A DNA stretch of 64,000 bases from Ignavibacteriota bacterium (GTDB lineage Bacteria > Bacteroidota > Ignavibacteria > UBA10030): NCBI GenBank assembly GCA_963833465.1, contig CAWHXW010000001.1, forward strand, positions 24,972-88,971. Reading direction: 5' to 3'. This document shows, one piece after another, positions 50,001 through 57,067 of this stretch (position 1 is the stretch's first letter; each line of letters opens with the position of its first letter). Under the pieces are notes generated by a model, which made no database searches, had not been told where the DNA came from, and saw nothing but the letters and a program-made list of their open reading frames with translations. A program made the position numbers and the translations under genes.

Positions 50001-51483
50001 ACCATTGATATTCGTTTGTGTTAAAGGCTCGCTGACTGAATAATTTGGAATCCCTTGTTGAAATTGAGTATTTTGATTCAAGAACACACCTTTGTAGACA
50101 TCGCCATTATAGTTAGTTCCGATGTTTGGCGAGAAGGGAGCTGTGCGGCTTTTGTATAGTGCATTCATACCACGATTGAGCGGTTTGTTATTATGTGCCG
50201 CATCAGCGGAATCGATGAGCCATGGATCTTTGAACTGAACTGTGCCGCTATAATTCCCCGGCGCATCAAGGAGATCAACTTTGATTGTGCTGCCTTCTGT
50301 GGTGGGTTGAAATTGAGAAGTTAGAGTGGTAGTCGTCTGTGTAATAGGGAAATTATGATGGTTGGTAACATCGGATTGGATTGTGTTATTCGCATACCAG
50401 GTATTATATTTTTCACTCGACTCGATATCCTGATAGCCCAGCAGACATTGTGTGGAAGGATATGGAAACATAAATGAATCTGGCACACACCAGCTATCAA
50501 AATCGGGACCAGTCGTCCAACGACCAATTCCTGCCACGGTCAGAGTACCATTGCTGTGTTTTTGTGTCACTACTACTGCATGCGTAGCCACATAATTGGC
50601 TCTGTAAGTAATATCTACAGTTGGGGTAAACTGATAGGGATTTGAAGAAATATTTGCCCCAGTGTTCATATTAGTCCAAGAGGTAGTTGAATTTGGCGTG
50701 TAAGTAACTCCAAGGTACGGTTGTTCATAACTCAATACCGTAATAGGGGAATCACCAGTGTACCATTTTTTGTACATATCCAGATGGCTGATTACTGCCG
50801 TTTACCTTTACATACCCATGCCCGAAATCATTGTTCACGGTGATATGAATTGCGGGAGTATAAGTAATCTTCAATTGTATGTCGATATTTGCCTCAGTAT
50901 GATTATTAGATTCTTGACCACTCAATGCGCCAATATAGAGATATTTACTATTTGACCAGGCAGTCTTCCAATCAGTCGTCAATTGAGAACTCGACTTTGT
51001 CACCTGATATGTATCACTGTATTTCAATTGATCTACATAAGTGGAACCATTTCCAACTGCCTTCCAGTCGCTCGTTGGATCACCGAAAACCAGGCTGGAA
51101 GATAAGCCAACTACTCGTGCACTATTATCTCCTTGCCCGCTTTCATAATTGCTTATGGATATAATAAGAGATACATCCGTAATCTTCGCATCTGATGGAA
51201 TTGTACCAGAAAAATAAGTATGTGGGTCAAACATATATACCGTTCTGTAAATATCCGATGTGGAATTAGGATAATAATCATTGCCGGAACCATTCAATCT
51301 CCCGATATTGTATTTAGTTGACGAAGTATAATATGTGTTTCCGGAGCTATCGGTATAGGTGACAAATGTTTCTTTACTGCCACCTTCTGTTAATTGTGCA
51401 TATACAACATTGAAAGCAAATATGCACGAAAGGAGCGCTATTGAAAACAATAAATAATTCCTTTTCATAAATATCCTTTCCAT
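47010..51483 (-). CDS. giant secreted T9SS cargo protein with BNR/Asp-box repeats, right-handed parallel beta-helix, TPR-like segment and C-terminal sorting domain; frame broken in a homopolymer at 50766-50771
   Basis: ORF 50752-51483 carries the signal peptide MKRNYLLFSIALLSCIFAFNVVYAQ. ORF 47010-50777 carries SxDxGxTW-like Asp-boxes (STNCGQSWGST, SSNGGNSNSWGT, PNGGSTWSS), NxxGxxxxG beta-helix repeats, and the C-terminal …[34 protein letters not shown]… CTD. The two ORFs join as …GYVQKKWYTGD… across the homopolymer (A run on the coding strand, T-run 50766-50771 on plus). Confidence 0.75.
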
Positions 51484-51696
51484 ATGATTATGTAAGACAA
51501 TGGTTGAAATTATTGTTTAATTTGCATGAGTATCGTTAATGTTGTATTTTGAAAATGAAAACGGTGCCGCGGCTTACCTTAAAAGGTAAGAAAGGACACG
51601 GCCTGCCGTTTTCGTAATATCCCGTTTGGTGCTCGTAACACCAGACGGGATTTTATATTCTAAACAGGTGGTGAGCGGTTCTCGATAGCCATAACA

Positions 51697-52779
51697 TTAT
51701 CTCCTTCCGATTGTGACAACGGCACGCGGTGAATCCATTCCAACAGCGATGACTAAATTATTTTTCAAAGCCACAGAGCCATACGCACCGTTGCTTAGAC
51801 CTGTTATTGATTGATAACTCAACCAGCTTTTTCCATTGTAGTGCTTGACCTCTCCACCTGCACCGACTATAAACACATCGTTAATTGAATTACCCCTTAC
51901 TTGCGTAGTATAATACTGAGTAAGGTCAAGTTGATGAACAATCCAACTGGCATCAGATAGATTATTTTTCTCATAAATTCCATCTCCCACAACATAATAA
52001 CGTTGATTAGGTACAAACCACACACTGCTCAACGACAAAGAGATGGGATTATCTGAGAGAGTTGAGGCACTTGTCCCTTTAATTTGCAATATCTTTCGAT
52101 CATAGCTTGAGCCAGCATTTCCTGCCACAGCAAGTATCTCCCATTGGCTTGTTACGGAGTTATAAGCTCCATAAATATCCTGTATGTCCAAACTTGTTCC
52201 AGATTCTATCTTCGTCCAACTGCTGCCGTTGTAATGAACAATAGTTCCATTATTTCCACAAAAGTATAGATCATTTAAAGATGTTCCCCATATATGATTT
52301 ACACTTCCATCGTTTTGACTTAAGACACCCATATCCCATAAGTGATATAAAGTCCAGCCGTTGCCATTGGGTAAATATGGTAAACCGCTTGAAAGAATAA
52401 TGGTGCCATCTGATAAAACAAAAATACCTGTTAATGGTGCAACTGTCTGATTTCCTTTGTACTCAACTGATATTTTTTCCAGCTTCCATTCTCTTCCATT
52501 CCATATGGCTAAATTGTATGGTAATGAATCCCAATTTCCCAAACTGTCTTTTAAATAAATCGCACCAACCGCATACGCAAGAGTATCATTTATTATCGCA
52601 ACGTCATAGAGCATACTGCTTGCGCCATCGCCAAGCTGTGTTATCGTCCAGCTAAAGTTATGGCTTGTCGTATCCGGGGTATTGTCTTTTGGTTGTGTCG
52701 GCTCATTTTTGCACTTGAGATTTAAAAACGCTGCGCATAAGAAAATTGCAAGGAGAATAATTTGAGAATGTTTCTTCAT
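51697..52779 (-). CDS. beta-propeller lipoprotein, tandem paralog 1 (Ycf48/BNR-like repeats)
   Basis: 360 aa. Lipoprotein signal MKKHSQIILLAIFLCAAFLNLKC, Pro/Thr linker, then repeated …IWGTSxNDLYFxGxxGxIxHYNGSSW… blades. Confidence 0.7.
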   Translation of the reverse strand: MKKHSQIILLAIFLCAAFLNLKCKNEPTQPKDNTPDTTSHNFSWTITQLGDGASSMLYDVAIINDTLAYAVGAIYLKDSLGNWDSLPYNLAIWNGREWKLEKISVEYKGNQTVAPLTGIFVLSDGTIILSSGLPYLPNGNGWTLYHLWDMGVLSQNDGSVNHIWGTSLNDLYFCGNNGTIVHYNGSSWTKIESGTSLDIQDIYGAYNSVTSQWEILAVAGNAGSSYDRKILQIKGTSASTLSDNPISLSLSSVWFVPNQRYYVVGDGIYEKNNLSDASWIVHQLDLTQYYTTQVRGNSINDVFIVGAGGEVKHYNGKSWLSYQSITGLSNGAYGSVALKNNLVIAVGMDSPRAVVTIGRR

Positions 52780-52841
52780 ATTTCTTCCTCAAGAATTACG
52801 TTGACTGGATTTGCAAGGGCAATATAGATATTTGACCTCTT

Positions 52842-52871
52842 CCTGTCAGTCACGTAAACGCGTGATTTTTT
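52842..52871 (-). promoter_or_regulatory. palindromic operator plus promoter of paralog 1
   Basis: TCACGTAAACGCGTGA (perfect TCACG-N6-CGTGA) at 52850-52865. On the gene strand it abuts cTGACA (-35). A 17-bp spacer and TATATT (-10) follow about 45 bp before the ATG. Confidence 0.45.
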
Positions 52872-54944: not shown

Positions 54945-56031
54945 TTACCTTTTCCCCATTAATAAAACAGCATTCTGATCAACATCTCCTACCGCAATCA
55001 CTGTGTTGCCGCGAATAGCAACACGAGAATATGATCCGTATCCGTTTGGGAGTTGATTTACATAGTCGTACCACGTTGAGCCGTTATAATGGACAACGTC
55101 GAGATAACCACCAGTGACGAATATATCGTTAAGAGCTGCCCCTCGGATTCCACCGGCTTCAAATTGTGTGACAGTACCAATAGAAATATTGCTCCAAATA
55201 GGATTTACTGATGAATTCGTTGAAATGATTCCATCACCAACTAAGTAATACTTTTCTTCCGGTACAAACCAGAGACTAAAATACACTTTGGCAAGCGTCG
55301 TAATAAGAGAGACTGATGTTCCTTGAATAAGCAGGAGTTGGGATTGAGACGGCAATGAATCTACTTGTGTTGCAAGAGCTAAAATTTCCAACTGACCTGT
55401 TCTCGAATCTGTCGCTCCATAAATATCTGTAATATCCAATTGCGTCGGACTCGATAGCTTCTGCCAGTTTGTACCGTCGAAGTGAGCAATAGCACCTTTT
55501 CTTCCTACTGCATATATATTATTGTCCGATGTACCCCATATCTTTTTGTACGAACTGACCCGGTCCTAAGAGAGTATTATTTGGCTTGATTGCGGATGGA
55601 GAAATCCAATAAGATTGTGTAATTATATTACCATCGAATTTATGTACGCCAGTGCCATCTGCAAGCCAAATATCTGTTGGACTGAATACCATAATTCCTG
55701 TCCAACCTAAAAAATATGCATTTCCTATTTCGTCATTTGCCATAAGCTTAATTAATTTCCAACTAACTCCATTCCAATGAGCCGCGTTATATATTGAATC
55801 TGGAAGTTGTATCTCTCCTACTGCCCAGATATTTGTGTCGCTCAGAATTGCAACATCTTGTAAATACGAACTTCCGCCTCCGCCCCACGTAAATTGCTGA
55901 AACACAAATGCATGGCTCGTGGTATCGTTTGCAGGAGACGGCGGTGCAACAGGGTTTTTCTTGCAATCGAGATTTAAAAATAACACACATAAGCAAACAG
56001 CAAAGAGAATAGATTGAGAATACTTCTTCAT
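54945..56031 (-). CDS. beta-propeller lipoprotein, tandem paralog 3 (frame broken at T-run 55543-55547)
   Basis: ORF 55519-56031 has the lipoprotein signal MKKYSQSILFAVCLCVLFLNLDC. ORF 54945-55439 is the C-terminal half. The correct frame across the gap reads …IWGTSDNNIYAVGRKGAIAHFDGTNWQKL…. Confidence 0.65.
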
Positions 56032-56093
56032 ACAGAGACCTCAAGAGATATAATGGCTGGTATAATGTGCATAAAATATTTATTTATCTGTTT

Positions 56094-56125
56094 CCAAGCA
56101 ATCATGCAAATGCGTGGTTTTTGAT
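56094..56125 (-). promoter_or_regulatory. degenerate third copy of the operator
   Basis: caaTCATGCAAATGCGTGGttttt, about 70 bp upstream of the paralog 3 start. Confidence 0.3.
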
Positions 56126-57067
56126 TTTCGGTTTTTTCCCTTTGTTACTGTTTTCGCCCTATCGTAATAACAGCTTGAGGCAGTCAAAAAAATAGGTTCC
56201 GGATAATAGCTCCAATATCCTGTAATTGTCCCGCCTATACTATTGCCACCACCATTCACTGAATTTGTTATAGTTGTAACACCTCCCAAATTACTGCCAG
56301 TTTCCAAGCGAACCTCAAGTCCTATTCCACAGGGAATGTTAACGGTAGCAGGATCATTACTGATTGATGTTATAAATACCTCTGGCGTTCCTAAAACAAT
56401 CGCTACAGCTACGCCTTGTGATGCTGCGATGTATCCTGATGCAGTAATTTGACAGGGTCACTGTACGATAAATAATGGACTGCCATTATTTTGATCAACT
56501 CCACTCATTATAAAGAAAGGCTCATCTGAACTTGAGCTAGATGCATTAAAAGTTTTTATCTCCCAAATCGGTTTTATCTCTACCCGCTCTTTAATTTTAA
56601 CTCCCGTCTGAGCGTTTAGAATATTAGAAATTATAAAAAGAATTCCGAGAAATGAAAGTCTGAATACATGGTTTATGCCTATAGGTATCTTGTTATCCCC
56701 AATAATAGTATAGTATTGTAGTATGGTAAATCACAAGAAATGAACGCAAGTAAAATACAACCAGCGGGGGACAATGTCAAGTCCAGGCGGTGAATGTCAA
56801 ATGATTTTTAAAGAAAATAATAAAATCACAATTTGCCTTTCATTAGATACTCGATTGCCAAATATATTGCTGTTCACACTGCATTTATCAAAGTTTTAAA
56901 CATTCTGCTTTTCTTAAATCAGCTTCCAATTGTAGAATTTTCACCTCTAAAATTTCTTACAACTGCGTTTCTGTGCTGAAATCAATGATACTGTTACGGT
57001 ACTCGCATTGTGCCATTTTCTATAAGAAATCATAAAGGAGTGAGACAAAAATCTCAAGGAGGATACA

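Follow-up and report, generated by a model that had tools for sequence, protein, structure and literature searches.

The stretch of DNA analysed here, the window, covers 64,000 nucleotides of an Ignavibacteriota bacterium (assembly GCA_963833465.1, contig CAWHXW010000001.1), and the element of interest is a short palindrome, TCACG-N6-CGTGA, that lies at promoters of a tandem array of paralogous lipoprotein genes. The array consists of three full paralogues, named here A, B and C, and of one 5' remnant, all of which, like the neighbouring type IX secretion system (T9SS) cargo gene, are found on the minus strand in the list of open reading frames (ORFs) of the window (table 1). In the direction of transcription, a short ORF (approx. 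56668-56140) is followed by A, a hairpin, a promoter module with the remnant, the promoter of B and B itself, a further promoter module with C, a second hairpin and, finally, the T9SS gene. The original prediction of three copies and a decayed fourth was borne out, with the specification that the fourth is a 5' fragment that would have arisen by deletion. The surroundings, instead, have to be redrawn: the array had been placed downstream of the T9SS gene and upstream of a gene for a PAS hybrid histidine kinase, but, because all the array genes are on the minus strand, it lies upstream of the former in terms of transcription, and it is divergent from the latter.

Table 1. Features of the propeller-lipoprotein array and of the flanking genes, in the order of transcription of the array; positions are those of the window.
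Feature	Position	Strand	Description and basis
Short ORF upstream of A	56140-56668	-	signal peptide, in-frame stop; N-terminus …AQTGVKIKERVEI…SDEP
Palindrome of gene A	56102-56117	-	degenerate, CCACGCATTTGCATGA, 12/16, each arm 4/5; from sequence
Promoter-like stretch of A	56073-56101	-	weak, TTGCTT-17-TATTTT; read from sequence, missing from the consensus-scan list
Paralogue A	54945-56031	-	propeller lipoprotein of 361 aa once repaired; interrupted, giving ORFs of 170 aa and 164 aa
Hairpin 3' of A	54883-54913	-	-16.8 kcal/mol, probable terminator; consensus scan and folding energy
Palindrome, copy 2	54626-54641	-	exact TCACGCGTTTACGTGA; precedes the truncated remnant
Core promoter behind copy 2	54597-54625	-	TTGACA-17-TATCTC, consensus -35, decayed -10; from sequence
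Remnant of deleted paralogue	54484-54555	-	5' end (ATG AAG TAA and ~20 signal-peptide codons); sequence, repeats, L001 comparison
Promoter of B	54337-54365	-	TTGACA-17-TATATT, 11/12, without palindrome; unlike the other upstream modules
Paralogue B	52911-54267	-	long form, ~454 aa after repair; ORFs and L001 comparison
Invariant cassette, ~230 nt	52700-52932	-	100% identical at the B-C junction and at two L001 junctions
Palindrome, copy 1	52850-52865	-	exact, 0 nt from the -35, predicted centre ~-43.5; precedes gene C
Core promoter of C	52821-52849	-	CTGACA-17-TATATT, 10/12; consensus scan
Paralogue C	51697-52779	-	intact, 360-aa lipoprotein, predicted 7-bladed beta-propeller; ORF, alignment, AF2, Foldseek
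Hairpin 3' of C	51619-51651	-	strong, -20.2 kcal/mol; consensus scan and folding energy
T9SS cargo gene	47010-51483	-	downstream of the array; 243-aa and 1255-aa ORFs joined over an indel
PAS hybrid histidine kinase gene	57068-59074	+	divergent from the array

On the gene strand the palindrome reads TCACGCGTTTACGTGA, and its full arms, AATCACG and CGTGATT, give 20 bp when the CGTTTA spacer is included. The 64-kb window contains two matches to TCACG-N6-CGTGA versus 0.07 expected, and no further window sites appeared when one arm mismatch, or three mismatches over the whole 16-mer, were allowed. With the flanks counted, each arm extends to 7 nt, and 2 nt of the right arm fall within the -35 hexamer; the predicted position of the centre, -43.5, derives from the predicted CTGACA-17-TATATT only. 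The module in front of A is homologous to those of C and of the remnant, with both the palindrome and the -35 (TTGCTT) decayed. Thus, the earlier description of each copy as lying behind the same palindrome holds for C and the remnant, A having only a degenerate form (12/16) and B an unrelated promoter. Similarly, the reported arrangement of a perfect 16-bp palindrome abutting a TTGACA-like -35, with a 17-bp spacer and a TATAtt -10, is present at C, is modified at the remnant, where the -10 is TATCTC, and is not found at A or B. Co-regulation of the whole family, which had been suggested, is unsupported, since the palindrome does not precede each copy. Between the remnant promoter and B the consensus scan found no terminator-like hairpin on the gene strand, so that B may be reached by read-through from that promoter.

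The palindrome is best explained as the operator of a dimeric helix-turn-helix (HTH) regulator encoded elsewhere in the genome, a dimeric regulator having been suggested originally, and a probability of about 0.6 is assigned to this reading. It is supported by the fact that the palindrome is intact in modules that are 76% identical and that an 18-20-mer containing it abuts -35-like hexamers in two other contexts of the FCB type. In the anchored comparison of the modules of C and of the remnant (upC and upFrag), the palindrome is identical at 16/16 positions, the 35 nt upstream at 16/35 and the 45 nt downstream at 29/45; although 24% of positions are different between the two modules, neither the palindrome nor its A-tract shows a change. 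This observation speaks against the alternative that the palindrome is a passenger, namely a part of a promoter/signal-peptide cassette that was copied by duplication and gene conversion, its identity reflecting recent copying. Such a history would be in line with the location of both exact copies within homologous 152-nt repeats (family D2, 76% identical; C-type versus A-type repeats, 63%), with the 100% identity of the 230-nt cassette at three junctions in two assemblies, and with the absence of the palindrome from all the more distant relatives examined and its decay before A. It would leave unexplained why the same 18-20-mer is found at the same distance from the -35 before different genes in the metagenomic contigs described below, in one of them with the spacer flipped, and it is regarded as unlikely.

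When the metagenome collection of the Joint Genome Institute (JGI) was searched with the 18-mer AATCACGCGTTTACGTGA, 6 loci were found. Two of them, L033 and L038, are the same in sequence (GC content, 0.38-0.41) and carry the full 20-bp palindrome directly followed by TTGTAA-17-TATATT, approximately 110 nt before a gene whose secreted product has 600 aa or more. In L037 (GC content, 0.44) TTGACA-18-TATCTT follows the palindrome directly, the 134-aa ORF downstream is at a distance of 138 nt, and the asymmetric spacer of the palindrome is inverted relative to the promoter; here, the palindrome comes just after the terminator hairpin of a T9SS gene, and neighbouring genes encode T9SS-type C-terminal domains. 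Across L033/L038 and L037 the arms and their position relative to the -35 are retained and the flanks are different, and the palindrome is also better kept than its flanks when the window modules are compared with L033, reproducing the pattern of the upC/upFrag pair. As a separate observation, at positions 1044-1059 of L036, the contig with 64% GC, the same 18-mer has a TAGAAT -10-like hexamer downstream and is flanked on one side by a NarL/LuxR-type response-regulator gene together with an ORF for a small membrane protein, and on the other by a secreted-protein gene; this may be a chance occurrence. In the viral collection two high-GC phage contigs contain the 16-mer and are unrelated. The motif was not found in the literature, and Rfam has no family at the palindrome locus, the only match being one to OmrA-B at chance level (E 0.14).

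Relatives of the array for which upstream DNA is available, 34-66% identical and amounting to ~460 kb of related loci, were also examined. The palindrome is absent upstream of the propeller genes at 28 genome loci with 34-58% identity to C, in L030 (57% to C), in L032 (51% to C) and at three loci with relatives of A (60-66%), as well as near relatives of the L033 protein (L039-L041). The closest relative of A, P0125 (79%), is uninformative, being found on 1.2-kb contigs with only 64 nt upstream. Absence of the palindrome from orthologous arrays had been set out beforehand as an outcome that would speak against the original prediction, and at 34-66% identity this is what was found. Such an absence argues against an ancestral feature of the family, not against function. 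Because it extends to every examined relative, the palindrome would be lineage-specific wiring that is not ancestral in the propeller family. Other palindromes occur in these loci. In L030, the 57%-identical propeller gene is preceded, at approximately 100 nt, by a tandem pair of perfect palindromes, CTAGGAA-NN-CTTCCTAG (positions 9870-9909), which would be a different putative operator in the orthologous place. In L039, GAAGGTCGCCTTC and GAAGGCGACCTTC are found, and two palindromes, GTAGAAGGTCGCCTTCTAC and TGAAGGCGACCTTCA (positions 4729-4778), lie upstream of TTGACT-17-TATATT, the promoter of the orthologue of the L033-protein gene.

Several points weigh against the assignment of an operator. 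Only two exact palindromes are present in the window, the third module, that of A, having lost symmetry, and, because both lie in homologous 152-nt repeats, the two do not count as independent occurrences. The metagenome collection was scanned with the full 18-mer, so that tolerance in the spacer is not addressed by the number of loci retrieved, and the remaining 3 of the 6 hits (a gammaproteobacterial ftsH-glmM spacer, a phage-like contig and the GC-64% contig) look like chance. The L033 promoter shares with the window modules the GGA after the -35 and ATCTATATT, and it may derive from the same ancestral module rather than being an independent case. Along the same lines, the first ~50 residues of the ORF upstream of A (56140-56668) resemble the N-terminus of the L033 protein, with E 2e-4 against the L033 protein family in a small search; in L033, the gene preceded by the palindrome promoter belongs to this same family. 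Throughout the ~460 kb of related loci TCACG-N6-CGTGA, with up to one arm mismatch allowed, does not occur near homologues of the propeller or of the L033 family. Finally, the Pfam search of 30 window ORFs returned housekeeping enzymes only, with no regulator gene and no HTH or cyclic nucleotide (cNMP)-binding domain.

With the operator reading, two promoter modules of a recombining tandem array of genes for Ycf48-like 7-bladed propeller lipoproteins, just upstream of a T9SS gene, would carry AATCACG-CGTTTA-CGTGATT with the right arm touching, or overlapping by 2 nt, a sigma-70-type -35. The putative regulator would control gene C directly and gene B via read-through from the remnant promoter, and at gene A, with its decayed site, control would be weak or absent. 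The anatomy of the array, the predicted fold, the mosaicism and the presence of the palindrome at a like promoter position in other contigs are shown by the data, and we infer the binding of a protein to the palindrome, the position of the transcription start site and the direction of regulation. The position of the palindrome fits an activator touching region 4 of sigma or the alpha subunit, as in class II-like activation or with lambda cI at PRM. A repressor would be equally compatible with the near-consensus -35 hexamers, which are unusual for activator-dependent promoters, and with the overlap of 2 nt. The geometry by itself does not distinguish between the two, and, with the -35 near consensus and overlapped by the right arm, repression is no less plausible than activation of the class II type.

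The original prediction went further in proposing class II activation by a dimer of the CRP/FNR family, and the 5-6-5 geometry over 16 bp and the predicted centre near -43.5 would be compatible with such a protein. Consensus half-sites are TGTGA-N6-TCACA for CRP and TTGAT-N4-ATCAA for FNR. It was correctly noted that the half-sites of TCACG-N6-CGTGA are everted with respect to TGTGA-N6-TCACA, and it is this opposite order, along with the lack of resemblance to the TTGAT/ATCAA arms of FNR, that speaks against the assignment: neither CRP nor FNR has half-sites of this kind, the predicted centre misses the canonical -41.5 by 2 bp, TTGACA and CTGACA are -35 hexamers close to consensus, and no cNMP-binding or Crp-type gene is found among the 30 window ORFs. 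The involvement of a CRP/FNR-type protein specifically is, therefore, improbable.

The layout of the palindrome, 7-6-7 with an asymmetric and conserved 6-bp spacer, is also that of dif- or lox-type cores, which raises the question of whether a tyrosine recombinase uses it as a core site for shuffling the paralogue cassettes by excision and insertion. The organization of the array differs between the window and a near-identical assembly, L001, and the window copies are direct repeats that flank the remnant fragment, the B promoter and gene B. However, the breakpoints between the window and L001 fall within coding sequence and at a 10-bp microhomology, GCAGCGTTTT, and not at the palindrome; a fixed position abutting the -35 in three contexts would not be expected of a recombination site; and no recombinase gene is present among the window ORFs screened. 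A role of this kind seems very improbable. Even smaller is the chance that the palindrome acts as an RNA hairpin or intrinsic terminator, either of the upstream gene or of antisense transcription, the plus strand showing a hairpin and a T-run. The consensus scan lists plus-strand 52848-52867 and 56100-56119 as terminator-like, but the stem, at -8.4 to -10.3 kcal/mol with its flanks and with z-scores of -1.9 to -2.9, is weak as compared with the hairpins after A and C (-16.8 and -20.2 kcal/mol, respectively), the gene strand has no U-tract, the 5-7 bp stem being followed by CTGACAGG or TTGACAGG, and no plus-strand gene converges on the palindrome sites. The hairpins after C (51619-51651) and A (54883-54913) have their T-runs on the plus strand and preceding A-runs on the gene strand, so that in the consensus scan they seem to be oriented opposite to the genes that precede them. 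A site for the integration host factor (IHF) was considered and discarded: AATCACGCGTTTA matches the consensus of IHF, WATCARNNNNTTR, at all but one position, and an asymmetric site of this type leaves two conserved arms unexplained.

The comparison with L001, an 8.2-kb contig from another sample whose central gene, P0002, is also found on a 1.26-Mb contig of a metagenome-assembled genome, provided information on the history of the array. L001 contains four propeller genes before a T9SS gene, and it shares with the window segments of 96.7-99.2% identity (the 3' half of C with its flank; the B promoter and the 5' portion of B) that are arranged in another order. Mosaicism is seen in P0002, which combines a C-type 5' end, a B-like middle and a C-type 3' half. 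The invariant cassette comprises the 3'-terminal 7 codons of the gene before it, the intergenic region with the operator, the promoter and a GAGG ribosome-binding site, and signal-peptide codons, and identity drops to 50-70% on both sides. Because this cassette is 100% identical in three places beside diverged coding sequence, the array can be taken to recombine, with mosaic copies and a copy number that differs from that of L001. The remnant ends at the junction GCAGCGTTTT|CATTTTCAAAATACAAC, where signal-peptide coding sequence is joined to the 3' flank of a C-type gene. The 10-bp microhomology reads GCACCGTTTT below gene C of the window, and L001, in which the intervening gene is retained, has the exact GCAGCGTTTT below its C-type gene. 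Deletion between GCAGCGTTTT in the signal-peptide region and a nearly identical 10-mer in the C-type 3' flank explains the decayed fourth copy. Thus, the view of a paralogous and changing surface-protein family is upheld by the mosaics, the difference in copy number and the deletion remnant seen with respect to L001.

The reading frames of several genes are interrupted. Gene A is interrupted at an A5 run (55534-55551) by an indel of 1 nt, and gene B by a 1-nt insertion, an extra A (54039-54056), which L001 does not have, showing a different indel nearby. In the T9SS gene the indel, again of 1 nt, affects an A6 run (50758-50775, minus strand): its two ORFs, 50752-51483 (243 aa, with the signal peptide) and 47010-50777 (1255 aa), overlap by 26 nt and fuse into one gene of ~1,490 aa on removal of one A from the run. 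A PfkB-type kinase gene elsewhere in the window (37539-38520, plus strand) is likewise split, into 124-aa and 234-aa ORFs, beside short homopolymers. In view of the A-runs at the splits of A and of the T9SS gene, of the lack of the B insertion in L001 and of the similarly split PfkB gene, the frameshifts look like indel errors of a long-read consensus, as the simplest explanation, and for the same reasons pseudogene decay of A and B was deemed unlikely.

After frameshift repair A, B and C (361, 454 and 360 aa, respectively) are mutually 40-48% identical. All copies contain a signal peptide and an invariant Cys; their Pro/Thr linker has DTTSH at its end, and blade motifs, IWGTSLNDLYFCGNNGTIVHYNGSSW for example, are repeated. 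In an alignment of 56 homologues Cys23 is invariant and follows a hydrophobic N-terminus, and the D-T-T-S-H after the linker is nearly so. The residue that precedes the Cys is G, S or A in most homologues and a non-canonical K, D or N in the three window copies. Thus, of the lipoprotein features originally listed, the signal, the Cys, the linker and the blades were confirmed, with a reservation about the residue before the Cys. An insertion after the lipobox of the second paralogue, reported as ~70 aa, is indeed present in B, where the extra domain is ~85 aa and the protein is ~94 aa longer than C. This is the common long form of the family, many relatives having 420-530 aa.

The structure of C predicted with AlphaFold 2 (AF2) from the 56-sequence alignment has a pLDDT of 92.9 and is an all-beta propeller with disordered linker residues 24-33. 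The top Foldseek match is Ycf48, the 7-bladed assembly factor of photosystem II (PSII), with E 9e-11, TM scores of 0.62-0.72 and 13% identity, in agreement with the fold initially proposed. A, B and C have no Pfam match (E<=0.01) and no NCBIfam match. Sequence and profile searches of the PDB with the propeller proteins found no match, Ycf48 included, and the sequence model of the Ycf48/HCF136 family, PF14870 (PSII_BNR), does not match either, so that the resemblance is one of fold. The description of these proteins as beta-propeller lipoproteins is well supported as a prediction, with the caveat of the K, D and N residues before the Cys. Despite the absence of a family model, C has 1,479 relatives at E<=1e-3, labelled as Ignavibacteria, Melioribacteraceae, Calditrichaeota, Neomarinimicrobiota, Elusimicrobia and others; the family comprises more than 1,400 clusters and extends across the FCB group, and no description of the family was found in the literature. 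Six members (P0007, P0022, P0099, P0106, P0117 and P0142) are named 'glucosyl transferase' in records sourced from NCBI/nr. The name is probably a propagated misannotation, given that a glycosyltransferase domain is undetectable and that the fold is that of a beta-propeller.

In the T9SS cargo protein a signal peptide and a conserved N-terminal region are accompanied by a beta-helix and by a Por_Secre_tail domain (PF18962, residues 1171-1237, E 1.2e-7). A homologue of its residues 60-380 follows a propeller gene in L001, L003, L007, L009, L030/L031 and L032, and precedes one in L017; the conservation of the propeller/T9SS-cargo gene pair in several distant genomes hints at a functional link. 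A 93-aa ORF at 46428-46709 on the minus strand consists of a T9SS C-terminal sorting domain alone, 47% identical to the tail of the cargo, and is possibly a remnant or else the end of a further gene interrupted by a frameshift. In the PAS hybrid kinase, Pfam detected no DNA-binding domain.

Very little is known of transcriptional regulation in this phylum, for which the present analysis defines a concrete and testable candidate cis-element, AATCACG-N6-CGTGATT abutting the -35. A second outcome is a large family of beta-propeller lipoproteins without a Pfam match that is repeatedly found beside T9SS cargo genes, and the mosaic array is a case of surface-protein loci that vary between close strains. 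Current understanding is not overturned by these observations, which offer a lead for regulon mapping and family annotation rather than a new kind of system.

Among known arrangements, the closest to the promoter modules are class II sites and the sites of lambda cI at OR2/PRM, with which they share a dimer-type palindrome at, or overlapping, the -35 and a predicted centre at approximately -42 to -44. The lambda operator consensus is TATCACC...GGTGATA. The half-site order, ATCAC...GTGAT, is the same as in the lambda operator, whereas ATCAC and GTGAT are separated by 8 bp here as opposed to 5 bp in lambda, and, with the near-consensus -35 found here, activation may be unneeded. With a CRP site the palindrome has in common the 5-6-5 geometry, the 16-bp length and the A/T flanks; it differs in that the half-sites are everted and end in CG, and that the predicted centre is ~2 bp upstream of -41.5. 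As for the proteins, Ycf48/HCF136 (PDB 2xbg, 5ojr) is the best structural match, being also a 7-bladed beta-propeller of ~300 residues. However, at 13% identity and with no PF14870 match, the proteins of the window carry a lipoprotein signal, belong to a non-phototrophic FCB host and are linked to T9SS cargo instead of photosystem genes.

The array as a whole recalls the Mycoplasma vlp/vsp genes, which are variable lipoprotein families with a conserved 5' cassette. In both cases there are tandem lipoprotein paralogues with a near-identical promoter/signal-peptide block and divergent mature coding sequence, and copy number and mosaicism differ between close strains. At variance with vlp/vsp, globular propellers take the place of repeat-rich tails, and variation is seen only between assemblies. 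A search for a switch element in the window found no promoter repeat tract, no inverted-repeat pair flanking the promoter and no recombinase among the ORFs screened. By extension of the analogy, the cassette could be the recombination and expression handle of a surface-variation system operating at the population level: homologous and microhomology-mediated recombination would move divergent propeller bodies from one cassette to another, one regulator would select, via the palindrome, the copies that are expressed, and the propellers would be partners or anchors of the T9SS cargo. This extension is a doubtful one. An operator-controlled promoter and an array of paralogous lipoprotein genes are both of known kinds, and the putative operator is a fairly ordinary element of gene regulation.

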